DNA of 34,006 nt from Candidatus Dojkabacteria bacterium. Lineage in GTDB: Bacteria; Patescibacteriota; Dojkabacteria; J137. A program made the translations under genes and the position numbers. The notes under the pieces are model-generated. The model was not told the origin of the DNA. It saw nothing but the letters and a program-made list of their open reading frames with translations, and ran no database searches. Of the stretch, positions 433-34,006 are shown in pieces. How positions within the stretch are numbered: position 1 is the stretch's first letter; each line of letters opens with the position of its first letter. The stretch lies in contig AP024679.1 in NCBI GenBank assembly GCA_025999215.1, positions 1-34,006 on the forward strand, read 5' to 3'.

Positions 433-1713
433 CTAGTATTGACTCAAATGCCAGTAAGCTGTTTTAAAACCTTGATTGCTACAAGCTGCATTTTCGCAAA
501 TTATAATGTAATTAGCTCCATATTTATCAACTCCTTTATACAAATAACCATCATGAGCAGCATAAACAGGAGCATTCCACGGTGATGCCGCAACATCTAT
601 ACCGTAATGAAAATCACACTCATAACGTCCACCAAAATAAAAACATCTGTTGCCATAAGCGCTTGTAAAAATACCACCACTCAATGGCCACTGAAGAGAG
701 CTTCCCCAACCACAGCCAGCAACTACCCCCGATGGTAAATAGTTACATGGATTATCATTAACACCATTGTAATAAACTTCGAAATGAAGATGAGGTCCAG
801 TTGAAAAACCAGTACTACCTTGCCTTCCTATCATGGTTCCCGCCACAACATAGGTGCCTTCTTGAAAAGGGGTAAAGTTATTTAAAATTTCTTGCCTAGC
901 TTTTTCTGCTTCTGCACGTTTTTTAATTTCTTCTTCTTCTAGCACCGCAAATACTGCTTGATTTTGCTGATTAGTTAAATTTAGCGTATTAATTTGAGCA
1001 TAATAAACAGCCATTTGAGCTTCTACTTCTGATTGTTTTTTTACAAGATCTTCCTTTTTAATTTCTATACTTGCTTTACTTTTTTGAACTTCAAGAAGTT
1101 TTAATTCCAGTTCTTGTTTTTTGATTTTTAATTCTTGTTTGAGTCTTGCTAATTCTGTAAGCAGTTTATTTGTATCTTTCTGAATGATTGATTTGTATTG
1201 TGAAGATTTAAAATAATCATTGATGTTATCAAGATTTAAAATATTATCTGAACCACTTAAACCATCGCCATATAAACGAAAACCCATGTAACTTTCCTTC
1301 AATCTTTCATTAGTCTCCGATTCAAGATTTGCTACATCTTTTTCTGTTTGATCAATTTCTTTGAGTTTTTTGTTTATTTCTTCTTGGAGAATTTCTATTT
1401 GAACTTCAAGCTGATCAATTTCTAAGTTTAATTTGTCAACCTCTTTATCTAAAATTGATATTTCACCATAAAGTTTCGAAAGTTCAGAGCTATATCCTGC
1501 TATAAGATAATTATTGTTGTCAATTTGAGATTGAATTTGGTTTTGTTCTTCTTCTAATTTTTTAATTTCTTCTTCAAGTTTTTTTAATTGTTCCTCCAAA
1601 GTTTCACTAGCATTAATTTCTGGAGCAAAAAAATTAAAAGGATAAACTACCAAAAATAATGAAATAAATGACAAAACATAGGTAACAATTTTTACTTTTT
1701 TGAAAGCTTTCAT
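433..1713 (-). CDS. Secreted M23 (LytM-type) metallopeptidase with N-terminal signal anchor and long coiled coil (EnvC-like architecture); catalytic halves in permuted order
   Basis: N-terminal hydrophobic helix. About 250 aa of heptad-like E/K/Q/L-rich sequence follows. M23 motifs GSTGFSTGPHLHFEV, FHYGIDVA and YWHLS are present. Confidence 0.85.
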   Translation of the reverse strand: MKAFKKVKIVTYVLSFISLFLVVYPFNFFAPEINASETLEEQLKKLEEEIKKLEEEQNQIQSQIDNNNYLIAGYSSELSKLYGEISILDKEVDKLNLEIDQLEVQIEILQEEINKKLKEIDQTEKDVANLESETNERLKESYMGFRLYGDGLSGSDNILNLDNINDYFKSSQYKSIIQKDTNKLLTELARLKQELKIKKQELELKLLEVQKSKASIEIKKEDLVKKQSEVEAQMAVYYAQINTLNLTNQQNQAVFAVLEEEEIKKRAEAEKARQEILNNFTPFQEGTYVVAGTMIGRQGSTGFSTGPHLHFEVYYNGVNDNPCNYLPSGVVAGCGWGSSLQWPLSGGIFTSAYGNRCFYFGGRYECDFHYGIDVAASPWNAPVYAAHDGYLYKGVDKYGANYIIICENAACSNQGFKTAYWHLSQY

Positions 1714-5585: not shown

Positions 5586-6095
5586 TTATTTTTGAATTAA
5601 CCGTAAGACTTTATACTTCACTTCTCTATTTGGCAACTCAACCGTTACAACATCTCCTACCTTTGCATTATTTAAAGCTTTACCCACAGGAGAATCAATT
5701 GAAATTTTTCCTTCTTCCGGAGAAGCAGAAAGCGTTTCCTCTGCACCCACCAAGGTTATAGTTCTTTTTTGATTTGTGTCAACATTTTCAATTTCAACAG
5801 TGTTACCCACCCTAACAACGTTTGAGTTTGAGCTTGTAGTAACGATTTTCGCCTTTCTAAGCATTTCTTTAATGTCTGTGATTCTGTTTTCGTTTAGTTC
5901 TTTCTTTTCCATTGCTGATTGGTACGGAAAATTTTCAGACAAATCTCCAAGCTCTCGCGCTTTAGCAATTTCTGAGGCAATCTCTCGTCTAATTATAGTT
6001 TCTCGCTCCTCTAGTTCTCGCTTTAGCTCATCATAAGCTTCTTGAGTCATCTCAATAATGTCTTCGCTTTGTTGTTTAGTGTTTTTTCTAGGCAT
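5586..6095 (-). CDS. greA: Transcription elongation factor GreA (with a short N-terminal extension)
   Basis: Coiled-coil N-domain with ARELGDLSENFPYQSAMEK, and C-domain SIDSPVGKALNNAKVGDVV. Confidence 0.9.
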   Translation of the reverse strand: MPRKNTKQQSEDIIEMTQEAYDELKRELEERETIIRREIASEIAKARELGDLSENFPYQSAMEKKELNENRITDIKEMLRKAKIVTTSSNSNVVRVGNTVEIENVDTNQKRTITLVGAEETLSASPEEGKISIDSPVGKALNNAKVGDVVTVELPNREVKYKVLRLIQK

Positions 6096-6146
6096 AATTA
6101 ATTTGTAAAGTCTAATATACTTTATCCCAATGATTCTATCACAATA

Positions 6147-9100
6147 CTAATTTTTTGCCAACTCTAATTCATAGATTTTATCTCTTGGAAGCTCATTTGT
6201 AAATATGAAAGAATTCCTGCTTTTTATAAGCTCAGGGGAAATTAAAACATTTCTATATGCTTCATCAAATATAAATTCTGCATCAACTCTAACATTTTGT
6301 CCAAAAATTGAAGGTAGTAAAAAATTATATTTGATATTACCATCAATCTCATCACCAATGAAATTTAAATTCCAACTGATTTCAAATGGGTTGCTGTTCA
6401 CAACATTTATTATTCTACACTGTTTTCCATTTATATTTAAACTTTTAAAATTTTGCCCTGTAGATAATTTCAGTTTAACATCTGATGCAATTGACGAATT
6501 TGGTACGCAAACCACCCAATCTTGGGAAGCAAAATTCAAATTTGGAGAAAAACTAACATCAAAAGTTGCAGTGCCATCGGCACTAACTATATACTTTAAG
6601 CTATATTCAGAATTTTTAAAATTGTCACCTATGACTCTCAAAGGATCGTTGGTATTTACAAATACTTCAAAAAACTGTAACACTTCTTTTCTTTGTGAAT
6701 TATCAAAATTTTTCATGGATATAAACTTTGCTGTATTGTTATTCTCAAAATGAGCGTATACATTACCATTATTTGAGTTATCACTAAAAAATTCTACAGC
6801 TTTAAAAAAATTATTATTTAAATTTTTTGAAAATTCATGGATAGTCAAAGCAAATTCTTGAGATACAAGCTGATTTTTGGTTTGTAAGTTTGATGCTCTA
6901 AATTTACCCATTAAATCTTCTTCTTTATTGAAAATTTTATTATGAAACTCTGAAAAATCCTCAAGTGGAATAATAACTACTCCATCAACATCCACGTTAT
7001 AAATATCTGAAAACAAGGCTTTTGCATGAAATGAGAAATTATCCAAATCTCCAATAGTTGCCAATTCTTCAAAAGTAAATTGATTTTTATCAATTGGAGC
7101 AAACCTAAACTTATTGACGTCTTCAATCAAAACATCATTCAAATTCTCTTGATTAAACTCAATATCTTGAGGTGTTTTCACATCAATGAAGCTAATACTT
7201 CCATTTTGCATTGTCACTACTCCTACACTAGAAATTTCGCCGCCAATTGAGCGAGGAATCGAATCATCCACTATGAAAATAGCTATAGTTGTAGGTTTGT
7301 TGACTCCTAACAAATCAACAATATATTGATAATTTTTGAAATTTAGAATCGAGTTTGAGTAACTAATTAGCTCTAAATCGACTTCACTTAATTTTTTATC
7401 TAAACCAGTTATTAAAGTTTTTCGTGGAATTGGCATCTTGGTTGTTACATTCTGAATTTTTTGAGCTCCAGACTCTACAAAAGGTATTCTACTTTCAAAT
7501 TCCAAAATCTCATCTTCATAATTTACTCCCTCATTTAACAATGAAATATAAATGTCTGAAGAGAGACGCTGTTGAGTATTATCATCATAATCTTCAAGAT
7601 AATTTTGTAAAGGTTCCATAAAGTAAGCTACTTCGTTTAAAGCTTTGGAATATTCTTGATAAATCTTCACTGTATTGATATATGAATCAACATAACTATC
7701 TAGCGCAATCAACTTGGTATAGGGTTTAATAAAACTCATTGCTTCTTCCATTTTTTGTAAATTTTGATTTATTTCGTTAGTCTCTTCATAAACGACTTCA
7801 AAATTATTTTGGTTAAAGCCAATTTTAAGCTCTTCATAATTTTTAGATAAACTGAAAGCTTCCTTGATAAGTAAAATTGTGGGCGCAACAACCCAAACAT
7901 ATGTTATAAAAAAAATCATTAAAAAAATTAAAAGCCCAAAAACTTCAGCAGGACTTAATTTTTTAAGCAATGTAAAAATCTCTCCTAAACTTCTATACTG
8001 CTTCCAGAATTGATTTTGAAGTTTTTCTTTCAGAGTTCTGGGTTTAGATGACCTTTTTTTCTTGGTTATGGCGTGAGCAAGTTCAAGCCGTCTTTTTTTA
8101 AGTTCTTCTTGTCTCTGCCGTTCTGCAATCAACCTTGAAAGCGCACTATCAGGTTCAGTCTCATTACTTCCTGATATAACCTTTTGCAATTTGGAAACTA
8201 TTCCGTGCCCTTCACGCTTAACCTGATGACCAGCTATAAAAACCTTTGCTGCAAGTAATGACTGATGAACAGCCTTATCAAATGGAATTTTTGGTTTCCA
8301 ACCAATCACTTGCAAATTTGGTGCTGGTTTATAAGGTGCCAAATGTGGCAAATTATCCTTTTCGTCTACAAATATGATTTCTGCAGGATAATCAACATAC
8401 TCTTGAATTTTGTAAGCAATAGAAAGATGAGTAATTGGATTATCATAACTAACCGAAAAAATTTGTCCAGTGGTATCTTTTGAAAATTGAGCTTTAATTA
8501 TTCCATATGATGCATCAAGAGTGTGAACATACCATTCTGCTTCAAGCCCGTCTTTGTATAATTTCAAAGGCATTTCATGCGCTGCAGAAACTATTAATTC
8601 TGTAAAGGCGGTTCTAACAGAAAAATCTGTATGCTCACCGATCATTTCTCCCAATCTTACAATACGAGTATCTAAACCTTTTTTGTCGTGATATTCTTGA
8701 GTTAAATTTTCGGAATATCTCTGTAGCTCCATTTCAGAATATGCTGAGTTAAAGGAAGATTTTAATTTAAAATGCAAATCTTCAATTGAAAGCAATAATT
8801 GTTGCGCTTTGATTGATGTAGTTAGTAAAAATTTTGCATTGAAAGCATGTGCCAAAGATAAAACTGAATCTAGAGTGTTAGATGCCTGCAAAAATTCGTG
8901 AGTTGTAATTTGTGATAATAAATCTTTAGATTCGTGATTAAAATAAAAAACATAATCCAACCTTCTAATATCTTCCGATAAGTGAGGAACTGAAGAATAA
9001 TCTAAAAAACTCACTAGAGTATCCTTTGGAAAAACTTTTAATTTTTCTAAATTTTGAGGTGTGAAAGTATCAATTAAGATCACATACCCACCTTGCTCAA

Positions 9101-11742: not shown

Positions 11743-12384
11743 ATGTTAAGGACAATACTATCTATAATTTTTTTCAGTTTAATTTCTTTTGGAATAGTTT
11801 ATGGATTGTACATGGATCAAATAGCATCAGTTCAAAAACCAGTTACCAAAATAACCCCAGAAAATTATTCACCTAGTATAAAACAACAAATAGAATATGG
11901 TGATATTGTTGAAATAACTGGCACACCTGATCTACTACATCAAGTTTCTCAGGAAGGTGAGATAGAATCAGAGGATGGATCAAAAACAGAAGGAATTCAA
12001 TATTATTATGTAGGTTTAAAAGAATACGGTTATGATTTTGTTGTGCGAATTAATCCTGGAAAACTTTTTTCTGAAACACAAACTTTCAAAGGCAAAGTAA
12101 CCGGTTTAACTCAAACAGATTTTGGAAATAGAATAAAGAACAGTCTCAACAAACCTATTAATTTTCAAGATAGCGTTAATAAAGAAGCAGCGAAAGAGCT
12201 TGATGTAGAATTTCAAGAAGAAATTGCTCAACAATCCGAAGCTAATTTTACTTCATCTACACTATTAATTTTAGATAACGAAATTGTAAACAAAAACGAT
12301 ATTTATGCCAAAGTGTTTTTTTGGGGCGTACTGTTAGATATTTTCCTAATTGCCGTTTTTCGAAAAGTAGTGTTTAATTTATAG
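11743..12384 (+). CDS. Hypothetical membrane protein (N- and C-terminal TM helices)
   Basis: Hydrophobic ILSIIFFSLISFGIVYGL at the N-terminus and VFFWGVLLDIFLIAVF at the C-terminus. No family recognised. Confidence 0.5.
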   Translation: MLRTILSIIFFSLISFGIVYGLYMDQIASVQKPVTKITPENYSPSIKQQIEYGDIVEITGTPDLLHQVSQEGEIESEDGSKTEGIQYYYVGLKEYGYDFVVRINPGKLFSETQTFKGKVTGLTQTDFGNRIKNSLNKPINFQDSVNKEAAKELDVEFQEEIAQQSEANFTSSTLLILDNEIVNKNDIYAKVFFWGVLLDIFLIAVFRKVVFNL

Positions 12385-13308
12385 TATCCCGACGTTTTTA
12401 AGTTTCAACCATTCTCCTAAAACGTATTGATCTTTGTACAAAATATATTCACTCGCAAGATCACGGCCAATCCATCGGTAGTGCCAAGGCTCATGAATGT
12501 ATCCAGTTTTATTTTGAGTTCCTGGAGGATAAGACATTATGAAACCAAATTTGTATGCGTTATCTCGAAGCCAATTCCAAATCGATTCATTACAGTTTGT
12601 AAAAGATGAGCAAGAAACAGCTCCTATATCTACAGTTGTACCCAATTGATGCTCACTAAAACCTGGACGAGCTGAATATTGTGATGCAATTGCTTCTGCT
12701 TGACTTCTAGTGTAACCCTTTGACATTTCTACCTTTACCCAATTCTCATAAACATAGTATTGCGTTTGATATGATCTGTATCCTGAATTCAACATCATAG
12801 AAAACCCAGCCTTTTGTGCTTCTCGAAACATATCGATTAAATCATTATAAGCTTTCATGCTAATTGACTGTCCTCCAGGTATTTCTTGAACATAAACAAT
12901 ATCTGATGGCTCCCAAGCTACATTTGGAAGACTATTATACCGATCTAGCGGATAAAAAGTACAATCTTCGCAAGATTCTCCAAAAATAAACCCCAAAATT
13001 CCAGATTTTAAACATAGGTTATCTACAAAATTTTCGTAGTTAGAAAATGTAAATTTTTCAAGTTTTTTATCAAAATAGACTCTAAGAGATGCATCTTTTT
13101 TACAAGCTCCCATTGAAAGATCTAAATTTGCAAAGCTTGAGTCTATGATTTTTTCTTTTTTTATATCTAGATTAGTAATGTTGATAGAAAATTCTCTCAA
13201 ATTCTTAGGGAGTTCTTTTTCTGGTTTATAATCTTTAAATTTTTGAATTAAAATTTCTCTATCATCATTATTTATTGCATCAAAAATAGTCCTTATTTCA
13301 TCTTGCAT
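12379..13308 (-). CDS. VanY-type D-alanyl-D-alanine carboxypeptidase (peptidase M15B); as called it lacks any export signal
   Basis: SGYRSYQTQ, FSEHQLGTTVDI and EPWHYRWIG are the M15B zinc/catalytic blocks. Confidence 0.85.
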   Translation of the reverse strand: MQDEIRTIFDAINNDDREILIQKFKDYKPEKELPKNLREFSINITNLDIKKEKIIDSSFANLDLSMGACKKDASLRVYFDKKLEKFTFSNYENFVDNLCLKSGILGFIFGESCEDCTFYPLDRYNSLPNVAWEPSDIVYVQEIPGGQSISMKAYNDLIDMFREAQKAGFSMMLNSGYRSYQTQYYVYENWVKVEMSKGYTRSQAEAIASQYSARPGFSEHQLGTTVDIGAVSCSSFTNCNESIWNWLRDNAYKFGFIMSYPPGTQNKTGYIHEPWHYRWIGRDLASEYILYKDQYVLGEWLKLKNVGIL

Positions 13309-15375: not shown

Positions 15376-16386
15376 TTATCGTTTGTTATTTTGTTTACCG
15401 GAAACAGCCTTTACTAAGGCTGCTTTAATTTCATCCTCACTGTTTGGATCAACGAACATAGCATTGTTTTCTACCACTTCGTGAAAAATCTCAATGTCTG
15501 AAACCACCAACGGCAAGTCGAAATAATACGCTTCAATCAAAGGTAACCCAAATCCCTCCCATAAGCTCGTACTTAAATACACTTGAAGCGTTTTTGTATA
15601 CAGCGTTTTTAAGTCATCTTCGGTTACAAAGCCTGTGATGATTACGCTTTCACCTAATTTTCTGTTGCTTATCAACTCAAAAATACGATCGTACTTCCAT
15701 CCTTTCTGCCCTACTATCACAAATTTATAATCAGGGTAATCTTTTTTAAACTTATCAAAAGCCAAAATTGATTTTTCATAATTTTTTCGTGGTTGTAGCG
15801 TTCCAACTGACAAGATATACTTTCTTATGTCTTAAATTTAATCTATCTAGAATATCCGTATTAATTGAGTCATTCGGATAAAAAGTGAGAATTTAATCCT
15901 ATACCTATTGTAAATATTTTACTTTTTACTTCGTCTTGCAAATCGCTCTAAATCTTTTGATGTTGTTTGCGATACGGTTGCTAGTGCTAAAGCTCTGTAT
16001 GTTGCTAATTTCAAGTAAATTCTAAATTTAAAAGATGAAATGTATCCATAATGGCTAGGATATCTGATTGGCGCTAAGTCATGAACAATTTGGATTGTTT
16101 TGTTAGATAAAATTGCATATATAAAATTTGATGGAGAGACAATAGCATCAACTTTTAGCTTTTTTATATAGAAAAAAACTTTTAAATGCCACAATAAATT
16201 TACTTTCCCTTCGATTTTAAATACCTTTATATTCTCATTCTGAATTAATAAATCATTATTTGTAAATGCATAAATATCGGCCTTGGTTGATAAATTATAT
16301 AAAAGTTCTCTAGCATAATAGCCGATTCCTGCATTTTTATCTGTGATCATTGACGCATCAAAAGCAATCGTATATTTTTTGTTCAT
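15376..16386 (-). pseudogene. Glycosyltransferase family 1 (GT4-type), broken into two ORFs plus fragments by about 3 frameshifts
   Basis: N-terminal ORF IAFDASMITDKNAGIGYYARELL. C-terminal ORF GTLQPRKN...FVIVGQKGW...SLWEGFGLPLIEA. The 105-nt gap translates as KIFTIGIGLNSHF / PNDSINTDILDRLNLRHKK / YILSVGT in three different frames. Confidence 0.75.
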
Positions 16387-16426
16387 GTTATTTTAATAAC
16401 TTAATGTTGATGTGTTATTCTTAAAT

Positions 16427-17513
16427 ATGATAACCCAAATAACTCTCAAAAACTATAGAAACATTACAGATTTTGATTCTACTTTAAAAAAAATTAATTT
16501 AATTGTAGCGCCTAATGGAGCTGGTAAAACAAATTTGCTTGAAAGTATTTTCTTTTTGTTTAATGGCACATCTTTTAAATCAATGCGTTCAATGCTTGAT
16601 GCTGTTGGCCCAAATGAAGATTTTTCTACTGTAAAAATTATACTTCAAAAAAATATATGTGAAATGGTAATAATTAAATCCCCAAACCTTAAAAAACAAT
16701 ATAAAAAGAATAATAAAAAGACTAATTTAAAACAAATATACAAAATTTTAAAACCTGTTATTTTTTCACCTAATTCAGTTGATCTTGTTGATGGCGCTCC
16801 AGAAGTTAGAAGAAAAGATTTAGACCTTTTTATTGCTAGTTTTGACTACCAATACAGTGATGCGCTTACACGCTATGAAAAAGTTTTAAAAAATAAAAAT
16901 GCAATTCTAAAAAACATAAGAGATGGTAATTCGACTATAGAACAACTAGAATTTTGGAATAATGAACTATGCCAAAACCGCAGAAATTTTAGTTTCAAAA
17001 AGAATAAGCATAATTGAAAAAATAAATAATCAATTATTAAATTCATCAAAATATTTTTCACCTGATTCTAAAATTTCTATTGATTATCAACATTTTAGGC
17101 CAATTGATTTAAATTCTTATGCTCAAAACTTGTTACAGCTATTTTTAAAAAATACGCAAAAAGAAATAATTGTCGGCAAAACTCTATATGGACCACACAA
17201 AGATACCATAGATATCTATAAAAATGATAAAGCGCTTAGATTTTTTGGCTCAAGAGGTGAACAAAGAATTGGCGCATTTTGTTTGAAACTGGCACAATTA
17301 GAACTTTTACAAAATGAAAATTTAAATGTAGTATTTCTACTTGATGATATTTTTTCTGAATTAGATGAGAGTCATAGAAAAATTGTTAGCGAGATTATAT
17401 TATCAAGAAGTGAACGTATACAAACATTCATAACCACATCAACTATAGACGAGATTCCAGAAAAACTGCTGAAAACCTCCTATTTGATATCTATCAAAGA
17501 TAGTAATTCATGA
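16427..17513 (+). pseudogene. recF: DNA replication/repair protein RecF, interrupted by one frameshift near 16965-16975
   Basis: N-terminal part ITLKNYRN...APNGAGKTNLLESI (Walker A). C-terminal part GPHKDTIDI...GSRGEQRIGAFCLKLAQ...LLDDIFSELD (signature and Walker B). The two overlapping ORFs are in different frames. Confidence 0.8.
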
Positions 17514-25018: not shown

Positions 25019-25948
25019 TTATAGCCAATTATTCAAATCTACTTGAAACACAGTTTCTCCTGTAAAAGCATCTTGAAAATCCAAAACACCATTATTATTC
25101 TCTACGTACGAGAACCCTCCTCCATCATTTACTATTCTTTCTTCCTTTATGGTCCCATCCTCATAACGAGCCAATGAATAAGTTATATAGTTACGTTCTA
25201 AAAGAACAAAAATATCTGAATTCTTGTTTTCAAAAATTGCTGTTACTATTTTATCTGTAGATATTGCTTCAGTTACTTCACCTGTTGATAAGTTGTATTT
25301 CATTAGCTTCCCATGTATTGTTGTAATGTCAGCTCCTAAGATAAGTCCCCGACAAAAGAATATGTCATCACCCTTCACAATAAGATAATTACAACTAAAT
25401 CCCGTTACTGAGATAGGATTAGAACTCCACTCATATAACACCTGCTCTTTTTCTTTAGAAATTCTTACGAGTGATAATTGGTTTAAATATATAAGTGTAT
25501 CGTCTGGTAACCATTCATATGCGTTCAAATACTCTTCACTGTCAATTAATTGGGTTACAAAAAGCTTATCTTTAAGCTGGGTATTTCCATCATATTTGTA
25601 TCCAGCACATTGATTTTCATCACAAATTATGTAATTCAAGGTGTTTTCATGCACATTCAGTTTTACTGCCCTAAAATTTTGACTTTCGTTCAAACTATCA
25701 ATCTCCCTCAAATTGTTGAAATTATATACTATTACTAGAGATTCATCTTGCACTTGAAAATCTTTTATAATTTCAAGGTTAATCGCAGAATATTCTTTTT
25801 TTACTCCATAATTTTCTATAACAATGAAAGCAAGTGTTCCTACAATAATCGAAATAAAAGTAATTAATAATATATTCATGAATATTTTTTTTGTATTTGT
25901 CATTTTTGATATTATAATAAATGAATAATCGTTATCATAACTAACCAT
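25019..25948 (-). CDS. Hypothetical signal-anchored extracytoplasmic protein (last gene of the island)
   Basis: TM helix MNILLITFISIIVGTLAFIVI, then a beta-rich about 270 aa. Probable start at the internal ATG at 25903. No family recognised. Confidence 0.5.
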   Translation of the reverse strand: MVSYDNDYSFIIISKMTNTKKIFMNILLITFISIIVGTLAFIVIENYGVKKEYSAINLEIIKDFQVQDESLVIVYNFNNLREIDSLNESQNFRAVKLNVHENTLNYIICDENQCAGYKYDGNTQLKDKLFVTQLIDSEEYLNAYEWLPDDTLIYLNQLSLVRISKEKEQVLYEWSSNPISVTGFSCNYLIVKGDDIFFCRGLILGADITTIHGKLMKYNLSTGEVTEAISTDKIVTAIFENKNSDIFVLLERNYITYSLARYEDGTIKEERIVNDGGGFSYVENNNGVLDFQDAFTGETVFQVDLNNWL

Positions 25949-26075
25949 CTCATTTTATCAATTTTATTATTGTAAATAATTTTTAAACTATTTCTAAATC
26001 TTTATGTTTGTATGTTTTTTTAACAAGCTTCTATCATAAGTTTCTATTTCAATTAAAATTAAAAGAGCTACTAAT

Positions 26076-27203
26076 TCATATTGAACCATATCCTTTTACA
26101 CTAACTATTGGTATATATGTCTCTATATAGTAATCATCCACATTTTCTAACTCGTCGAATTGTATAAAGCCTCCCATTACAATTACTGGCACCAAATAGC
26201 TTACTCCTTCTTCTTCTATTTCTAACAAAGTATACCCTGGCTTATAACTTATATATTTTATCGTTGGTTCTGGTAATAGTGTATCATTCAGCCTACTTAA
26301 TCTAAAAGATAACAATGGTGAAGAGTCTCTTTTAGACATTTGCTCAACTATATATGCTTCACCTTTTTTAAATTCTTCTTTTATATTTTCGTTTTGCATT
26401 ATTTCTAATTCTAATATACCATCATAACTTTCGAAATCATAATCAATAGGCCTAATAATGTTATGAGAAAAATTTTGTGTTTCATTTGGATCTTCCCTAT
26501 ATAGTGCTATTGTTCCCATAATTTCTGTATCTATTATAGGTTTATCCAAAAAAACAGGATAAACATTTACGTTCCATCTGTAAGTACTAACAAATTTTTC
26601 ATACCCCAATCCAATAGGACCTTCTGATGGGTACACATCATAGTCTTTTGATAATGATAATCTATGTATAGCGTCTTGTAATATCATATATCCTTCGTCT
26701 TCATATCTCTTCTTTATGTTTTCATATGTGTCTAATTCTTTAGGAATCATATTACCTCCTACTACCGGTAAACCTAAATCCAAAACGTCACTACCAAATT
26801 CTACTTGCATATCAGTATTTTCAAAAACTTTGTTATACTTATAAATATTCATTTTTGGTATCTTAATTACCTCTAAGCTTTTCATATCTATATAGTATCC
26901 TTTACTCAAAACTTCTTTTACCTTTGCATCTTTTATTTTTTCAATACCTACGAGTATATTCTTTTGATCATAATTTAAACTCTCATATATTTCTTTGTTT
27001 CCATACGTTTCTTCTGTGTTTGAGATAGTTTTTTCTTCTTCATTATCCTTTTCTGGTACTTGTAATATAACTTTTTTTAGCACTTGGTTATCTTTTAATA
27101 TTTGTTTTTGACTTAGGAACACTAACAGAAAAAAACTTCCTGCCAATAAAATTAATGCAATGACTATGGATATTTTTGGTGCTATTTTTTTTACTTTTTT
27201 CAT
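26076..27203 (-). CDS. Hypothetical signal-anchored extracytoplasmic protein
   Basis: N-terminal KKVKKIAPKISIVIALILLAGSFFLLVFL. No family recognised. Confidence 0.5.
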   Translation of the reverse strand: MKKVKKIAPKISIVIALILLAGSFFLLVFLSQKQILKDNQVLKKVILQVPEKDNEEEKTISNTEETYGNKEIYESLNYDQKNILVGIEKIKDAKVKEVLSKGYYIDMKSLEVIKIPKMNIYKYNKVFENTDMQVEFGSDVLDLGLPVVGGNMIPKELDTYENIKKRYEDEGYMILQDAIHRLSLSKDYDVYPSEGPIGLGYEKFVSTYRWNVNVYPVFLDKPIIDTEIMGTIALYREDPNETQNFSHNIIRPIDYDFESYDGILELEIMQNENIKEEFKKGEAYIVEQMSKRDSSPLLSFRLSRLNDTLLPEPTIKYISYKPGYTLLEIEEEGVSYLVPVIVMGGFIQFDELENVDDYYIETYIPIVSVKGYGSI

Positions 27204-27235
27204 ATATAAGATAAATATTTAATATATTATTATTA

Positions 27236-27847
27236 TTATCCTTCTATTCTTCTTGCTTTCAAAACATCGTCCAATATTTTTAAAAAACTCTCTATGTACT
27301 TTTCTACATCCTCTTCTCTTTCAAATTTCATGACTACTTGACTTGCTGGATACCCTAATACTTCTATATCTATTTCATAGTACTTACCATCAGCTTCTTT
27401 AGTCTTCACTCTACATACATATTCATTTATTATTACGTATCCACAGAACAAATAAACTTTTTCCTTGTTAAAAACATTTCCTTCCATTTCATATAATTGA
27501 GCTAACTCCTGTTCTACTGTCACATTGTAGATATATTCTTCATCCATACCTTTCCATCCATCTTCATCGTATTCGCTAGAAAATCTTTTATTTAACAATA
27601 CTATGTACAGCTCTCCTCCTTCCTTGTTCTTTATCTTTATTCCACCTTTCTTTACTCCCCATACTTCAGGCCCTGCTCTTTGGGGTTCATCTATTGATAC
27701 CTTATACTTCCCTTTATCGTATTCAAATTCGTAATCTCTATATACATATTTCTCTTGGTTTACACCATCTATTTTCATAAACTCTCTTAAAAATATCAGT
27801 GCCCCAAACACCGCAACTATCATCGTTAATAGTAGTATTTTTTTCAT
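27236..27847 (-). CDS. Hypothetical signal-anchored extracytoplasmic protein
   Basis: N-terminal MKKILLLTMIVAVFGALIFL. No family recognised. 22 nt downstream of the previous gene. Confidence 0.5.
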   Translation of the reverse strand: MKKILLLTMIVAVFGALIFLREFMKIDGVNQEKYVYRDYEFEYDKGKYKVSIDEPQRAGPEVWGVKKGGIKIKNKEGGELYIVLLNKRFSSEYDEDGWKGMDEEYIYNVTVEQELAQLYEMEGNVFNKEKVYLFCGYVIINEYVCRVKTKEADGKYYEIDIEVLGYPASQVVMKFEREEDVEKYIESFLKILDDVLKARRIEG

Positions 27848-27869
27848 TTTTTTTTAATTTTAATATTTA

Positions 27870-28600
27870 TTAATTACCCCAACTAATACTCTTTAAAATT
27901 GATACCATTTCTTTTACTGCTTCTATGTCATATTGTTCTTCACTGGATGAAAGCACTGGAAAAATCAACGAAATTGAATATTGTCCTGTACCAGATTTTG
28001 TTGGTATGGCATTCTCTAAATCTGTAGGATATAACTCCAATTCATATTCATAATCACCTTGAATTACATTTCTAATTAAGTGTAATGTGGAACCAGGCAA
28101 GCTATATGGGCTCGTGAAACCAGTTCCTGAAACTTTATCTACATCAAAAACTAAGATTCTTCCATCTACGCTAAGAGCAAATTGATCTAATATGGAATTA
28201 AGCTTTACATACTCACCTTGCGTTATTTTAATACTCTGGTTGTACGAAATTATAATTTGATATTTGTTATTGCCAAATGATTTTGTATACTCCCCTGCTA
28301 TTCAAATCGCTTTGATTGCTTTTCACTCCAACCGTCAGGTAAAACTATACTCATCCCTGATATATCTATTTCCCTCCCTTTTGCTGCTTCGACTTCTACC
28401 AACTCTTTCTTTAAACCTTCCAGACTATAGCTATTAATTATCTCTTCTAAGTTCTCATATGTGATACTATTATTCTCAATTTCTTCTTTATCTAAACCAT
28501 TTTTTACTTCACCTGCTAGCAAATATATTCCCACTATAAATGTACTTGTTAAAAGCAGCATTGTAAACAAAACTATTATTTTATATTTTCTTATTTTCAT
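27870..28600 (-). pseudogene. Hypothetical signal-anchored protein, apparently split by a 1-nt deletion near 28296-28300
   Basis: The 100-aa ORF (28298..28600, TM helix IIVLFTMLLLTSTFIVGIYLL) stops at TAG. An adjacent frame is open from 28297 down to 27870, and its first about 65 codons have no ATG/GTG start. The track ORF 27870..28100 begins at an internal TTG. Confidence 0.45.
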
Positions 28601-28612
28601 ATTTTTTAATTA

Positions 28613-29132
28613 TTAATAATTATCAGATTTATACAAAATTGTATTTAATAAATCTATAAAAAAAATTTCTGCTTCACACTTTTCATAATTTGGGTCTTTT
28701 TGTTCATAATAACTAGTCTTTATATAAGGTCCTTTGTATCAAAGTTAGAAACTAACACATGCTCATATTCGTCTGCATTTATTTTTAAAATATTTAACCA
28801 GTCATGATTCGACCCTTTAAGACTTGATCATCCTTGCCATATTGCCATTTACCTAACACTGGCTTAAAATCTTCATAATCGTATTTCACCTGGACTTCGT
28901 CTGGAGATAAGGTAATTTTTGCAGCAACTATACTGTCGCCAATACTACTCCAGGTCCCAACTATAAATTCTTCACTAAATCTCTCCCAGCACATATCTTT
29001 TGCATTTAAAGTGTTTTCAAGGTTTTTAAATGTTTCTTTTTTACTGACATCAAGTAAAAAATTAATACTGAAAATGGATGTAAACAAGAAAAAAGTTAAT
29101 ACTCCTAGTAGAAATATTTTAATCTTCTTCAT
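28613..29132 (-). pseudogene. Hypothetical signal-anchored protein; the 112-aa ORF (28794..29132) plus two downstream frame-shifted open segments reach a stop 12 nt before the next gene
   Basis: N-terminal MKKIKIFLLGVLTFFLFTSIF. After the stop at 28794 other frames read ...NHDWLNILKINADEYEHVLVSNFD and YKGPYIKTSYYEQKDPNYEKCEAEIFFIDLLNTILYKSDNY*. Confidence 0.4.
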
Positions 29133-29234: not shown

Positions 29235-30029
29235 TCAATAATAATCTTTTGCAAGCTCAGATACGTTAATTGAACCATCTCCTTTGAATGTCTCAACTGT
29301 TTCGTTTCCTTTCTTCACTGTATATATATATTCAATATTGTCTTCAAAAACAGGTGCAGGTGAAAGCATTTTTGTAATCTCTAGAAAAAGTATGATTTTA
29401 TCTCCATCCCATACTCCTTCTCGGTAAACTTCTCCTGATTTTGCTGGTCCACTTATGAAACTAGAAACCAATCTGTTAATTTCTTTATCAAACTTAGGGT
29501 CGGGATATCTCTCAAAATTTTCCACATACTCAAGCGAATTATCTTTGTAAATCCAAGCTGAATAAATCTGGTTAATATCGTAATTTGTCCCATACTGAAC
29601 TAGAAAATCATCTTGATTATCCCCGTTAATATCCATTAATCTTATATTATCTTTCGGTAATGAACCTTGACGAAAGTACTGGTCTGCCATAACTTTCATA
29701 TCTAAAATATTAACCACACATATATATGCTAAGGTATTACTAGCTTTATCACTAGTTATGGTAAAGATGAGAACATTACTTTGATTCAGCATTTCTTTTT
29801 TGACAAATACATTACCATTATTTATGAATACTGGCAAATTAGCACTAGTAGCAACAACATCTTCCTTTAACATGCTTAGAATTTGATCTCTCTTTGAACA
29901 TTGCTTAGATACATCTGAAATAGTCGGATAACTCTCTTGCTCATTGTCGTTCAAGTTTAAGCTAAAAATATTTATCAAAACTCCAAAAAATAAAAGTACT
30001 GTTATTACTACAAATATCTTTTTATTCAT
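29235..30029 (-). CDS. Signal-anchored protein, paralog of 30686..31411; candidate immunity protein for the adjacent GH19-like module
   Basis: TM helix IFVVITVLLFFGVLINIF. MDINGDNQDDFLV and YPDPKFDKEINRLVSS align with DLNLDNENEILIL and LFNPVFDPSTERLISS of the paralog. ATGAATAA 8-nt overlap with the upstream gene. Confidence 0.55.
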   Translation of the reverse strand: MNKKIFVVITVLLFFGVLINIFSLNLNDNEQESYPTISDVSKQCSKRDQILSMLKEDVVATSANLPVFINNGNVFVKKEMLNQSNVLIFTITSDKASNTLAYICVVNILDMKVMADQYFRQGSLPKDNIRLMDINGDNQDDFLVQYGTNYDINQIYSAWIYKDNSLEYVENFERYPDPKFDKEINRLVSSFISGPAKSGEVYREGVWDGDKIILFLEITKMLSPAPVFEDNIEYIYTVKKGNETVETFKGDGSINVSELAKDYY

Positions 30030-30513
30030 AATTATATTTATTAAAAATTAGTAAATAACTGTGAGCTATTGAAGCAAAGGAGCTTCCACGTTCAGATACA
30101 TCATCATTTATAATATCTCTAGAATTATAAAAATCGAAACTACCATCTGGTTGGTCATAATCACTCAACTTTTTCCCCCTAAAGACTCCATTTAGTGCTC
30201 CATTTATTAAAATATCTGCTGATAAATGCTTTTCTTTTGCGACCAAATCAGGATTATTGATTAGTGGATATCCGGTTCTATTCTCTTCTCTTGCATAGTT
30301 ATACTTGCCTGTAAGTTGAGTGTAACCTCTGCCCTTATATTTAGGTCCATCTCCAATCTCAGTATTTCCTAATGCATGCGCAAGACATCCCGTATTTGGG
30401 TTGTTGTCTGTGCATGTCCAGTAAGAAATATCATATGCATCTCCTGAAGCTAACTCTGTCATAAAGGTTCCATAATTTGATTTAAATTGAGCTGTAGCTA
30501 AAGTGAAAGCCAT
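30022..30513 (-). CDS. Stand-alone GH19-like (COG3179 predicted chitinase / lysozyme-like) module, degenerate orphan copy of the C-terminus of the giant protein
   Basis: GDGPKYKGRGYTQLTGKYNYA, NNPDLV, LSDYD and DFYNSRDIINDD align with the 31416.. protein. Homology continues upstream of the ATG up to a stop at 30616-30618. Confidence 0.7.
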   Translation of the reverse strand: MAFTLATAQFKSNYGTFMTELASGDAYDISYWTCTDNNPNTGCLAHALGNTEIGDGPKYKGRGYTQLTGKYNYAREENRTGYPLINNPDLVAKEKHLSADILINGALNGVFRGKKLSDYDQPDGSFDFYNSRDIINDDVSERGSSFASIAHSYLLIFNKYNYE

Positions 30514-30685
30514 ATAATTTTTATTAGTGATATTATACTCTTTTAATTTTTCTAAAAGAATTTTCGTTGTTTCAACACATATTTCTTTTCTTATGCAATT
30601 ACAGAACCCAATATTTTACATTTTTTTTATTACATTTAACGATTCTATAATAAAAAAACAGCCGTTAATCATTCTAATCGTTTTA

Positions 30686-31411
30686 TCATAAACTAAGATA
30701 ATATTCATTAATAGGAATCTTCTCTATAACTCCTGGAGCTGTTACACTTTCTACATACTCATTAACGAGTTCTAGCTTATATTCATCCGTATATATATAT
30801 TCCTGTATTAAGAAATCACTTGCTCTAATTTTTTTGGAGCTTATTAACCTCTCTGTGCTTGGATCAAAAACAGGGTTAAAAAGTTTTACATCATTTTCTA
30901 ACCTTAACAATTTTCCATTTATTAAAGAAAAAATATAAAAGCTTTTTGATGTCCCCATATCTAGTAACCTGTTTAGTATTAAAATCTCGTTCTCATTGTC
31001 TAAATTAAGATCCTCAACTGATATAATTGGTACATCTTGCCAAATCTCTAAATCATATTCAATATAAAATATATCCTTCCAAATATCAGTCTGTTTTACA
31101 GATATACATAACGTATCATAACTTGAAGCGGATATCTCATTTGAAGGCAACACCTTTACCGCATATAATGAGCCGTTTGCAAATATGTCCCCTACTACGC
31201 TTGATTGATAGTTTTTTTTCCTTGGATCATACTTCTCAAAATTAATAAGATCAAGTCCACATGGTAGATTATTAGCTTGAATATTTTCTGAAATAGCATC
31301 CCTTATCTCTTCAGAATATTCTCTTAAATACATCGATTTATAAAGCAATAAAGCTGTAAGTATTACTAGTAATGTAATAGCGATAAAAAATATGGTTATT
31401 TTGTTTAACAT
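30686..31411 (-). CDS. Signal-anchored protein, candidate immunity protein for the GH19-like effector domain (start moved to ATG at 31411, 4 nt after the effector stop)
   Basis: TM helix ITIFFIAITLLVILTALLLY. DLNLDNENEILIL acidic loop. Paralogous to 29235..30029. Confidence 0.55.
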   Translation of the reverse strand: MLNKITIFFIAITLLVILTALLLYKSMYLREYSEEIRDAISENIQANNLPCGLDLINFEKYDPRKKNYQSSVVGDIFANGSLYAVKVLPSNEISASSYDTLCISVKQTDIWKDIFYIEYDLEIWQDVPIISVEDLNLDNENEILILNRLLDMGTSKSFYIFSLINGKLLRLENDVKLFNPVFDPSTERLISSKKIRASDFLIQEYIYTDEYKLELVNEYVESVTAPGVIEKIPINEYYLSL

Positions 31412-31415
31412 TTGG

Positions 31416-34006
31416 CTAATATTTAATAAGTATTGGTAAAAACATATTTTTTGCATACAGCGCTATATACTCACCTACAGTTAATCCATGGGTCCATGGG
31501 TAAGAAGTATAATTTGTATCACCATTAATTATCCACCTAGCATTTACAAAATCATACCCGCCCCCTGGAAGATCATAGTCTGAGAGCCCTACTGATCTAA
31601 AAAGCCCTCGGTTCATTCCTATAACTAGAATTTTAGCTGAAAATTCTTCACTTAGCACTAGTTCTGGATTCAAGACTATGTCTATACCTAAAATATCCTT
31701 AAACTTAGAATAATTATATTTGCCTGTGATTTGAACGTATCCTCTACCTCTATATTTATATCCATCTCCATTTGTGTAAGATAAATTTGGTGATAGATTT
31801 GGTTCATTACCAAGTGAATTCCCTACTGCATCATAGTTTTTTTGAGCAGTTGTCGGACCCCATACTTCCTCGATTACATTTATACTTGATGATTCGTGGT
31901 ATGCTGTTGCAAGAATGTAAGCCATATAATTGTCATTCTGAGCAATACCTAATTCTTCTGCTTCAGTGAAAATTGCAATGAGATCATCTCTTTTATTTTC
32001 ACCTAATAAGCCCACAAGCGTATTAACTAACTCTAAGTCATACTTATAATCACTTATACAAACCGCACTACACCCGTCCCCACTAACATTATTCCCATCA
32101 TCACAAACTTCCCCAACCTCTAATTTTCCATTACCGCATATACTCTTATCTCTTCCATCTGGACATACAGTAGCGCCTGCAGGATCATAAGCGATTGTTT
32201 TGGTATTTTTTAAATATGTTATTTTTGTGTTGTTAAAATCTTGATAAGATTCATTCAATTTACTTACTTCATTTCCTTTTGGTAATCCAAACCATTCTGC
32301 GCCACCATTTTCAAAGAAATTTTTTCCAATACTACTGTTTCCATATACTACCCAATATTGTTCCCCATGTCTATATATTGCACCATTCTCCATATTCCAA
32401 TAATTTCCTCTAGACCCACACACTGCCTCTACGAAAATTGATTTATCAAAACTATTTTGCGGAAACCCTAATCTACCAAGTCCTCCATAATCGTTATAAG
32501 CATTTCTAATGTTTCCTTCTAGAATCACCACATCTTTTCCACCTTGTTCTTCAACGTAAAAATCAAAAACTTTATAATCTTTATGAAATCTTTGAGCAAA
32601 ACCTGGGGTGCCTTCGTAGCCAAAAACTTTCTCAGTATCATTTTCAGGTAAACCATACGTATTACAAGCGCCATTATCCTCCCAAACCGTATAAATAGAA
32701 CCTCTGATTACTCTAACATTATTGTAATAAGGATCATAGTAGACAATACCGTTTGGTATCAAATGAGCTTTAAAATCATCTGTATTGCAAACTGAGATCA
32801 AATTTACTCTTTTATAATCTCCGCCCAAATCTTCAACTTTATTTTTTAATAACATTTCCCAATCTTCAATAATTCTTTCACAGTATTGCCCGGCTTCTGC
32901 TTTTACACATGTACCTAATTCCATATCACTTTCATCTTGAAATACTTTCAAAGGATAACCTATCTGTGCTAACCCACCTTCACGCTCAACTATATTTCGA
33001 GGAATGCCCTCCAATATCAAAAGCTCTCCACCATCTACCTGATAAAAATCATAAATTAATTTGTCGTTAATAAACCTTTGAGAATAACCAGAACTAAATT
33101 TTGAAGCACTTCTTGAAGTATCATTTTCTGGCTCTCCATAAGTTTCACATTTTAAAAACCATGATTTAAATATGTCGCCTGTTATTAACTTGACAGATTT
33201 TTCATTTGAAGAATAAATAGCAATACCATTATTTAAATCAACTGATGGAAATCCGCATACTTCATATATGTCATTTAGTAAAATTTCTCGATTTAGTTTT
33301 GCTTCAAACATTAATTGCAAATAATTTTTTTCAAGTATTTTATCTTCACATATTCTTTCACCTTCATAATCTTGACATTTAGTGTTAACTCCGTTTTCAC
33401 TATGTTTGTATACTTCACTTTTTGGCCATCCAAATTTAGAACTCGTTCCTCCAGTATCTTCAAATATCTTACTTATTTTTCCATAAACGAACTTTCCTTC
33501 GTGCTTTTTGCTCCAATAAATTCGACCGCCAAATTCTCCATAACCACCATTTATTAGCGGTTTAGAAAAATTTTGAAAATAGCCAAAAGTATTGCTTGGA
33601 CCTTTTGCGCCTATACTTTGATCTTCTATAGGAATACCAAACCTATCACATCTATCTTCAAACCATTTATAGGTTCTATAGACCCCTCCATAACTCATAA
33701 CAGCCTTGCTTCCTGTGTATAAAATAATTCCTTCATCTTTTGTATCGCTCGATATTTTTTCAACGTACTTAAATTTATACCCACATGTTTCAAATAAATT
33801 GCTTATGTTTTGGCTTCCTAAAGTCTGAGCTCGCTCATCAATAGCTTTTTCAGCATCACTACGATTATCAGGCAATCTTCCACCTTCAAAAAGTTGGTAG
33901 TAATAATTTGTTACCTTTTTCATTTCGCTTATAGGAAAACCTAGTCTACCCGCTGTGCCATTTAACTGCAAATGTATTCTATAAACTTCACTTAAACTCG
34001 CAAATG
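31416..34006 (-). CDS. Giant multidomain protein (N-terminus beyond window): LGFP repeats x at least 8, Myxococcus-type Cys-rich repeat, C-terminal GH19-like peptidoglycan hydrolase domain
   Basis: The frame stays open to base 34006 (FASLSEVYRIH precedes the TTG used by the track). Repeats include GRLGFPIS, DRFGIPIE, SKFGWPKSE, ETYGEPEND, AQIGYPLK, NTYGLPEND, GRLGFPQNS and EWFGLPKGN. Cys-rich repeat CGNGKLEVGEVCDDGNNVSGDGCSAVC. Hydrolase blocks ATAYHESS and GDGYKYRGRGYVQITGKYNY. Confidence 0.8.
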   Translation of the reverse strand, partial: FASLSEVYRIHLQLNGTAGRLGFPISEMKKVTNYYYQLFEGGRLPDNRSDAEKAIDERAQTLGSQNISNLFETCGYKFKYVEKISSDTKDEGIILYTGSKAVMSYGGVYRTYKWFEDRCDRFGIPIEDQSIGAKGPSNTFGYFQNFSKPLINGGYGEFGGRIYWSKKHEGKFVYGKISKIFEDTGGTSSKFGWPKSEVYKHSENGVNTKCQDYEGERICEDKILEKNYLQLMFEAKLNREILLNDIYEVCGFPSVDLNNGIAIYSSNEKSVKLITGDIFKSWFLKCETYGEPENDTSRSASKFSSGYSQRFINDKLIYDFYQVDGGELLILEGIPRNIVEREGGLAQIGYPLKVFQDESDMELGTCVKAEAGQYCERIIEDWEMLLKNKVEDLGGDYKRVNLISVCNTDDFKAHLIPNGIVYYDPYYNNVRVIRGSIYTVWEDNGACNTYGLPENDTEKVFGYEGTPGFAQRFHKDYKVFDFYVEEQGGKDVVILEGNIRNAYNDYGGLGRLGFPQNSFDKSIFVEAVCGSRGNYWNMENGAIYRHGEQYWVVYGNSSIGKNFFENGGAEWFGLPKGNEVSKLNESYQDFNNTKITYLKNTKTIAYDPAGATVCPDGRDKSICGNGKLEVGEVCDDGNNVSGDGCSAVCISDYKYDLELVNTLVGLLGENKRDDLIAIFTEAEELGIAQNDNYMAYILATAYHESSSINVIEEVWGPTTAQKNYDAVGNSLGNEPNLSPNLSYTNGDGYKYRGRGYVQITGKYNYSKFKDILGIDIVLNPELVLSEEFSAKILVIGMNRGLFRSVGLSDYDLPGGGYDFVNARWIINGDTNYTSYPWTHGLTVGEYIALYAKNMFLPILIKY

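Follow-up and report, generated by a model that had tools for sequence, protein, structure and literature searches.

A putative polymorphic peptidoglycan-hydrolase effector with candidate XAC2610-family inhibitors in a Candidatus Dojkabacteria genome

Polymorphic toxin systems (Rhs/YD-repeat, CdiA and LXG proteins) are said to have been described by Zhang, Aravind and colleagues in 2012. Bacteriolysins (class III bacteriocins, among them lysostaphin and zoocin A) are secreted wall hydrolases to which the producer is immune through peptidoglycan cross-bridge modification (by FemABX-like Lif/Zif proteins); to our knowledge, modular exchange of warheads with orphan cassettes is not a bacteriolysin feature. 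Here we describe a locus that shares traits with both, found at the end of a 34,006-nucleotide stretch (referred to as the window) of a genome of Candidatus Dojkabacteria (contig AP024679.1), a member of the Candidate Phyla Radiation (CPR; Patescibacteria), in which a giant protein with a C-terminal GH19 domain is followed by small signal-anchored proteins. The closest experimentally studied pair is XAC2609/XAC2610 of Xanthomonas citri. XAC2610 is an inhibitor of the GH19 effector XAC2609; its residues 151-159 (DINGDGHED) form a Ca2+-binding loop, and Y170, in the loop that follows, contacts the catalytic Glu48 of XAC2609, with Y170A impairing inhibition (PMC10933484). XAC2610 serves mainly to prevent cis-intoxication by an enzyme of the same cell, and the only XAC2610-family member characterised in the literature we examined is this GH19 inhibitor (PMC10933484). 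Wall effectors of type VI secretion systems (T6SS) with their immunity proteins (Tse1-Tsi1, Tge/Tgi) and the periplasmic lysozyme inhibitors PliI/PliC have also been compared with it, as cases in which an inhibitor loop enters the active site (PMC10933484).

The locus quite probably encodes a polymorphic, Sec-exported peptidoglycan-hydrolase effector with cognate protein inhibitors. Comparative sequence evidence makes this toxin-immunity reading well supported, with enzyme activity and inhibition as predicted properties. Every gene of the locus lies on the minus strand, with the coordinates that an earlier sequence-only reading (a model's reading of the letters) had assigned. In the direction of transcription, the order is the giant LGFP-repeat gene with its GH19 tip (A-type), a small gene that we call imm1, an orphan GH19 remnant (B-type), and a second small gene, imm2 (Table 1). 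The tight coupling proposed in that reading is correct at both places: imm1 begins 4 nucleotides (nt) after the stop codon of the giant gene (TAG ccaa ATG), and imm2 overlaps the orphan GH19 gene by 8 nt (ATGAATAA).

The open reading frame (ORF) of the giant protein, with its stop codon at 31416-31418, is open to position 34004 and runs past the end of the window, giving at least 862 amino acids (aa). Pfam recognises an LGFP repeat in it (27.8 bits vs a cut-off of 22), and the Cys-rich junction ahead of the tip matches NCBIfam TIGR02232 (myxo_disulf_rpt, E 2e-11, residues 622-649) as well as Pfam DUF4215. In GH19 enzymes the catalytic pair consists of the Glu of HE(S/T) and a second Glu about 9-10 residues on; the A-type tip has both, the first in an intact catalytic motif, AYHES (Glu codon 31893-31895), the second in IEEVWG. 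The tip matches the PHROG endolysin family phrog_181 with E 8e-25 (3e-16 for the orphan), and its best PDB matches are the GH19 endolysins 8p8e, 9ms7 and 4ok7 (E 2e-9 to 1e-8). None of RHS/YD, FHA, VENN, PxxxxDPxGL, LXG, PAAR and MuF is found in the giant protein, for which Pfam and NCBIfam give LGFP, DUF4215/TIGR02232 and GH19 only. An XVIPCD domain was not found either, as GH19 is the end of the protein and Pfam and NCBIfam give nothing further, and no genes of a type IV secretion system (T4SS) were detected in the window. In a homolog search with the giant protein, DUF4215 Cys-repeat proteins swamped the output and no orthologs were returned; scans of genome-contig and metagenome-contig collections with the repeat region gave no matches, nor did a genome scan with an alignment of the A-type GH19.

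Evidence that the tip is exchangeable comes from a syntenic relative, L001, of a Joint Genome Institute (JGI) metagenome (L-numbers denote comparison loci). Besides LGFP repeats, its giant ortholog of 1395 aa contains a signal peptide and an internal M23 domain. The two giant proteins share 84% aa identity over 649 aa (85% at the nucleotide level) and then end in unrelated tips: past the Cys-rich junction, L001 has an M23 peptidase in place of GH19, and the nucleotide homology between the window and L001 ends at ~32048, right after the Cys-rich repeat. The M23 tip in L001 is followed by a gene for an unrelated membrane protein of 236 aa. The polymorphic-toxin layout that had been read from the sequence is supported, and the C-terminal domain swapping that was to be looked for in related genomes is seen. 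Elsewhere in the L001 locus, the last 37 codons of a B-type GH19 remain beside an imm2 homolog broken by 1-nt and 4-nt deletions, and L003 has an intact imm2 homolog that is not accompanied by GH19. The different position of the L001 relic and the intact L003 gene suggest that the GH19/imm2 cassette moves as a unit. We also observed a motif, CxxxE(I/Q)W(D/N)GxxC(V/I), directly before the variable tip, be it M23 or GH19, in L001 (5650-5720) and in the C-terminal regions of L005, L008 and L011; the A-type copy of the window lacks it and has the end of the TIGR02232 repeat instead. It is possibly a junction or recombination module common to these proteins.

The 163-aa orphan was claimed to be a GH19-like paralog of the giant protein's C-terminus, which was confirmed by BLASTP against the A-type tip (40% identity over 147 aa, E 2e-29) and by the Pfam and PHROG matches of both and the PDB matches of the tip; Pfam GH19 scores the orphan at 33.2 bits, over its cut-off of 25.5. 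At the DNA level, the two share two blocks of 80% identity with a spacing of ~1.41 kb, and the DNA repeat D2 spans the orphan's ATG. All of the sequence blocks quoted as shared were found, except that the 'NY' of the orphan's NYMAF lies upstream of its ATG, in a frame that has no start codon. This in-frame stretch of 35 codons is homologous to ...CIIEVTT...EDTTRKLLSAINKYKIKDKNY of the giant protein in L004, and in both L004 and L011 its homology is to the junction and the first GH19 helices; judged from this homology, it is a leftover of the N-terminal helices of a B-type GH19 and of the junction ahead of them. Some 35-50 residues are missing from the N-terminal side of the orphan's domain, and it has Lys where the catalytic Glu would be (AQFKS, Lys codon 30481-30483), the second Glu being retained. 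The first catalytic Glu is present in all five related domains (YHES, YHEG, YYES, QYES, QYET; QFKS in the orphan), including the giant-protein C-termini of L004 and L011 (QYES and QYET), to which the orphan is 45-51% identical. Together, the 5' truncation and the Glu-to-Lys change speak for a displaced remnant and against a second functional enzyme. The order of toxin, immunity gene, orphan toxin and immunity gene given by the sequence-only reading is thus right as a gene order, with the qualification that the orphan toxin is truncated and has lost its catalytic Glu. The truncated orphan, the L001 relic and the intact imm2 homolog of L003 together show the traits of a toxin tip that was displaced and whose immunity gene was kept.

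The two small proteins are weakly similar when compared directly (BLASTP E 0.005, 30% over 64 aa; 12 of 2000 shuffles attain their Smith-Waterman score; hhalign E 0.014), and at this level they are not the clear paralogs that had been claimed. It is family evidence that brings them together. The NCBIfam model NF047539 (XAC2610_fam) matches imm2 with E 1.1e-8 (35.4 bits, cut-off 35; model positions 2-78 of 89) and imm1 with E 2.6e-7 (31 bits; model positions 1-88 of 89), so the link to XAC2610, previously proposed at the level of a motif, now stands as a family-level match. A hidden Markov model (HMM) built from 17 homologs with imm1 and imm2 left out recovers imm2 (E 5e-39) and imm1 (E 2e-23) over ~190-214 positions and matches no other ORF of the window; as the 17 homologs were recruited by a profile containing imm1 and imm2, this test is not fully independent, which the NCBIfam model is. 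Searching 1.84 billion representative proteins with a profile of imm1 plus the imm2 family, we obtained some 20 short proteins (135-290 aa) and, in addition, long repeat proteins of an FG-GAP-like kind. In the reciprocal check, all 14 short matches tested hit XAC2610_fam over the whole domain (9 of them above cut-off), and the long FG-GAP-like proteins had no XAC2610_fam match or one to model positions 1-26 (the acidic loop) only. Since FG-GAP-like proteins match the loop at most, the full-domain matches of imm1 and imm2 are specific.

The resemblance extends to functional positions. The loop DINGDNQDD of imm2 (29607-29633) aligns with the Ca2+-binding loop of XAC2610, by which Ca binding is predicted, and imm1 has the acidic loop DLNLDNENE (30986-31012); the loop residues D133 and D137 are invariant in 20 family members. 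These loops had been likened to FG-GAP-type Ca loops; Pfam gives no family for imm1, and for imm2 only a negligible match to FG-GAP_3 (E 0.076). Tyr150 of imm2, in TNYDIN (codon 29580-29582), aligns with Y170 of XAC2610 (GNYGG) and is nearly invariant, being present in at least 90% of closer homologs. The profile alignment places imm2 IRLMDINGDNQDDFLVQYGTNYDIN against XAC2610 IILTDINGDGHEDVVVWSGKEGNYGG (PDB 4QTQ), with E = 1 on its own, and the alignment of imm2 to 4qtq_A reads 'LTDINGDGHEDVVVWSGKEGNYGG'; single-sequence searches of PDB with imm1 and imm2 gave nothing relevant. Both proteins have one N-terminal hydrophobic helix without a lipobox Cys, from which an extracytoplasmic location is predicted. 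Each has exactly two Cys, which are conserved and at equivalent positions of the predicted ectodomain (C51 and C102 in imm1, C44 and C104 in imm2), an arrangement that fits a disulfide-bonded ectodomain. We note that an exact 14-nt repeat, GTATATATATATTC (EYIYT), occurs at equivalent sites of imm2 (29319-29333) and imm1 (30788-30802), the proteins being otherwise very divergent. Other membrane proteins were considered as paralogs of imm1 and imm2 and rejected, as shuffle tests gave no signal for the 112-, 203-, 375- and 309-aa proteins of the window or for the 236-, 218-, 237- and 371-aa proteins of L001. Nor does XAC2610_fam match any of these proteins.

Table 1. Features of the locus and the evidence on which each was assigned (positions in the window).
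Feature	Position	Strand	Basis
Repeat (predicted delivery/wall-binding) region of the giant protein	32139..34006	-	Pfam LGFP; N-terminus beyond the window end
Cys-rich junction (CGNGK..CDDGN..GDGCSAVC) directly ahead of the variable C-terminal domain	32058..32138	-	TIGR02232, DUF4215
GH19 'A-type' peptidoglycan hydrolase domain (predicted), C-terminal ~215 aa, stop codon included	31416..32057	-	Pfam, PHROG and PDB matches
imm1, 241-aa signal-anchored XAC2610-family protein, candidate inhibitor of the A-type GH19	30686..31411	-	XAC2610_fam, leave-out HMM, adjacency
In-frame 35-codon stretch 5' of the orphan ATG, without a start codon	30514..30618	-	translation NIGFCNCIRKEICVETTKILLEKLKEYNITNKNY
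Orphan 'B-type' GH19 remnant, 163 aa	30022..30513	-	Pfam GH19, phrog_181, likeness to L004/L011 tips
imm2, 264-aa signal-anchored XAC2610-family protein	29235..30029	-	XAC2610_fam, leave-out HMM, 4qtq_A alignment
Homolog of the L001 236-aa membrane protein, frameshifted	27876..28594	-	tblastn; break near 28295

The pairing of a GH19 tip with an XAC2610-like gene is not confined to the window. Four independent metagenomic settings (L004, L011, L005 and L008) contain a giant LGFP protein with a GH19 C-terminus followed at once by an XAC2610-like gene. In L004, which like L011 is a more distant relative than L001, a giant protein of at least 1307 aa with LGFP repeats ends in a B-type GH19 tip and is followed by P0126; in L011, the giant protein (1450 aa, with a signal peptide and LGFP repeats) also has a B-type tip and is followed by P0152. 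The tips in L005/L006 and L008/L009 are 50% identical to the A-type GH19 of the window, and the genes after them encode P0128 and P0135. The best partners of imm1 are P0128 and P0135, which come after A-type GH19, and those of imm2 are P0126 and P0152, which come after B-type. In this small sample, similarity among the inhibitor-like proteins is 42-94 bits within a GH19 type and 0-59 bits across types, two ranges that overlap (the cross-type pair imm2-P0128 scores 59 bits); similarity of the inhibitor-like proteins thus tends to follow the GH19 type. As a control, 80 metagenomic loci were examined in which GH19 stands alone, in ORFs of 158-381 aa with 32-43% identity; within 4 kb, an XAC2610-like ORF occurs in none of them, according to an HMM that recovered all known positives, on which it had been trained. 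A survey of toxin-immunity adjacency, suggested in the sequence-only reading, therefore found it conserved in L004, L005, L008 and L011 and absent at the 80 stand-alone GH19 genes.

Two further loci add to the range of contexts of this family. In L011, P0152 is immediately followed by a second XAC2610-like ORF of 193 aa (5768-6349; E 2.5e-27 with the family HMM), the two being candidate tandem immunity genes behind one GH19 tip. In L012 (1191-5543; NCBI GCA_010500995.1), the strongest XAC2610_fam match, P0138 (63.6 bits), has Imm-NTF2, Imm44 and several DUF genes as neighbours, in an array that looks like an orphan immunity island.

From these observations, we propose how the system may work. 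The giant protein, about 1,400 aa long as judged from its ortholog, would be exported by the Sec route (signal peptides in the orthologs make this probable), and its LGFP-type repeats are probably what keeps it attached to a cell wall. The C-terminal, lysozyme-like GH19 tip would then cut glycan strands in the wall of a neighbouring cell, either a competitor or a host. A wall hydrolase secreted from a cell that lacks an outer membrane meets the producer's own wall too, and imm1, tethered outside the membrane by its single N-terminal helix, would bind to the GH19 tip and obstruct its active site, much as XAC2610 does with XAC2609. Warheads would be exchanged at the Cys-rich junction, relatives having GH19 of type A, GH19 of type B or M23. 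The second cassette would be the leftover of a displaced B-type warhead together with its still intact inhibitor, and imm2 may protect against B-type enzymes from other strains. Other wall enzymes of the window are an EnvC-like M23 peptidase, which has a coiled coil at its N-terminus (433-1713, minus strand), and a VanY D,D-carboxypeptidase (12379-13308, minus strand), so that the organism has peptidoglycan of its own to protect. More tentatively, the locus might represent an undescribed CPR route of polymorphic-toxin attack, in which a giant, Sec-exported LGFP protein held on the wall has its tip (GH19-A, GH19-B or M23) swapped at the Cys-rich junction, membrane-tethered XAC2610-family inhibitors protect the producer, and the wall of a host or rival is breached by surface contact without a secretion needle.

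Several results weigh against the toxin-immunity reading. The comparison set is small, with one swap partner and four independent conserved pairs. Pfam GH19 (PF00182) scores the A-type tip at 23.9 bits, just under the cut-off, and imm1 is likewise under the XAC2610_fam cut-off (31 vs 35 bits). imm1 has Leu (RLLDMG) at the position of the inhibitory Tyr, and a word-indexed search of 5.8 billion proteins gave no close homolog of it (and two relatives only of imm2). AlphaFold2 models were unusable, with a predicted local distance difference test score (pLDDT) of 37 for imm2 (3-sequence alignment) and 40 for imm1 (single sequence). The N-terminus of the giant protein is outside the window, the signal peptide being seen in orthologs only. 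The imm2 homologs of L001 and L003 are not adjacent to a working GH19, and the XAC2610-like homologs in L007 and L010 have a non-GH19 fragment upstream. Finally, the locus has syntenic housekeeping surroundings and is not in an obvious island: it lies near ribosomal-protein and glycosyltransferase genes, with synteny to L001.

The last point bears on whether the giant protein may be a housekeeping autolysin, i.e., the cell's own wall-remodelling or division enzyme, with XAC2610-like proteins that tune it rather than confer immunity. The conserved chromosomal setting agrees with such a role, as do the internal M23 domain of the L001 ortholog and the fact that XAC2610 itself acts mainly against the cell's own enzyme (PMC10933484). 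We consider it unlikely: an exchange of GH19 for M23 between orthologs that are otherwise 84% identical is unexpected for a housekeeping enzyme, and so are truncated, catalytically dead copies with kept inhibitors, and XAC2610_fam members occur in immunity-gene islands as well.

Somewhat more doubtful still is that the XAC2610-like proteins are not inhibitors at all and instead are Ca-binding surface, adhesion or chaperone proteins co-transcribed with the giant gene. The sub-threshold score and missing Tyr of imm1 and the two homologs away from GH19 (L007 and L010) would agree with this, as would an acidic loop like generic FG-GAP Ca loops, given that FG-GAP-like proteins match the loop part of the profile. 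The matches nevertheless span the full 89-position domain rather than the loop alone, and the pairing is specific to GH19 tips, the M23 tip of L001 being followed by an unrelated protein. Similarity of these proteins also tends, with some overlap, to track the GH19 subtype, and the sole characterised family member in the literature examined inhibits a GH19 enzyme (PMC10933484). We reject as very improbable a prophage origin, with the 163-aa ORF as a phage endolysin and its membrane neighbours as holin- or spanin-like lysis partners: the GH19 domains do match phage endolysin families best (phrog_181 and the PDB endolysins), but no neighbouring ORF matches a phage family, the surrounding genes are cellular, and the orphan with its upstream non-coding extension is closest to the tips of giant LGFP proteins and has lost its catalytic Glu.

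The remaining genes of the window provide the context of the locus. The DNA of the window is cellular (G+C ~30%), with a ribosomal-protein cluster and genes for RecA, GatB, GreA, trigger factor and a class I tRNA synthetase; its proteins belong to an 862-kb contig. The 90%-identity cluster of its GatB has a single further member, annotated as Candidatus Dojkabacteria, which places the genome in the CPR. A GT1 glycosyltransferase (15376-16386, minus strand) and an SMC_N/AAA ATPase (16412-17513, plus strand) are each split into two ORFs, and in L001 both genes are unbroken (361 and 358 aa). A third split gene is found downstream of imm2. According to tblastn, the window has a homolog of the 236-aa membrane protein encoded next to the M23 tip of L001, with residues 1-94 in frame -1 and 97-235 in frame -3; the frameshift leaves ORFs of 100 aa and 76 aa. 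This gene may be a decaying immunity gene for an M23 warhead absent from the window genome; an assembly indel is the alternative, and its membership in the toxin-immunity system is uncertain. Three split genes in 34 kb (GT1, SMC_N/AAA and this homolog) suggest pseudogenes or assembly indel errors.

Downstream of the cassettes is a run of signal-anchored ORFans of 112, 203, 375 and 309 aa (25019-29132, minus strand). The 203-aa and 375-aa proteins are only 48% and 43% identical to their L001 orthologs, vs 84% for the giant protein, which suggests that they evolve fast. The 112-aa and 309-aa ORFans have no counterpart in L001, and the 309-aa gene sits where relatives have the imm2 homolog. In a scan for promoters and terminators, promoter-like sites were no commoner than in shuffled sequence, and terminator-like sites were not found.

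How CPR bacteria attack, attach and compete around their hosts is largely obscure, and few effectors have been named. The locus offers a concrete candidate effector-inhibitor pair from families with experimental precedent (GH19 and XAC2610), and suggests a way in which these bacteria may attack neighbours or hosts without self-harm. Ongoing antagonism in these communities is suggested by the swap of a wall-hydrolase tip between strains and by the orphan immunity gene that has been kept, and the XAC2610 family appears to reach well beyond the T4SS loci of Xanthomonadales. A description of such a system in Patescibacteria, of which the sequence-only reading was not aware either, was not found in the searchable literature, in a search that was not exhaustive.

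Compared with XAC2609/XAC2610, effector (X-Tfe) and immunity protein (X-Tfi; PDB 4QTQ) of the bactericidal X-T4SS of X. citri, the locus shares a GH19 hydrolase gene directly upstream of an XAC2610-family extracytoplasmic protein (here predicted to be so), the acidic loop (DINGDNQDD of imm2 vs DINGDGHED) and, in imm2, the Tyr aligned with Y170. The differences lie in delivery and anchoring. XAC2609 has an N-terminal GH19 domain and is a cytoplasmic T4SS substrate, whereas here a giant Sec-type LGFP protein carries GH19 as its C-terminal tip; the XVIPCD, the C-terminal domain that is recognised by VirD4, is absent because the protein ends with GH19. XAC2610 is a lipobox lipoprotein, whereas imm1 and imm2 would be anchored by a transmembrane helix. 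Also unlike the Xanthomonas system, the CPR host presumably has no outer membrane, the warhead is polymorphic, there is an orphan cassette, and imm1 lacks the Tyr.

With polymorphic toxins, the locus has in common a conserved N-terminal/repeat region, a variable tip that starts from a fixed junction, an immunity gene next downstream, and a 5'-truncated orphan toxin with a piece of the junction beside its own immunity gene. As differences, none of their defining repeats or junction motifs was found in it (the junction here is a Cys-rich disulfide-type repeat), a dedicated secretion system is not evident, and the warheads are predicted to act on the wall and not inside the cell. Bacteriolysins resemble the proposed system as Sec-secreted wall hydrolases (M23 or glycosidase) with wall-binding repeats, by which a monoderm producer lyses others; they differ in not being giant and in their cross-bridge immunity, in place of which we propose a protein inhibitor. 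T6SS effector pairs and PliI/PliC likewise combine a peptidoglycan hydrolase with an extracytoplasmic inhibitor, in unrelated families and with unrelated delivery machinery. Judged from these sequence comparisons, what is known here is the polymorphic-toxin logic and the GH19 and XAC2610 families, and what is new is the chassis, the envelope type and the CPR host.

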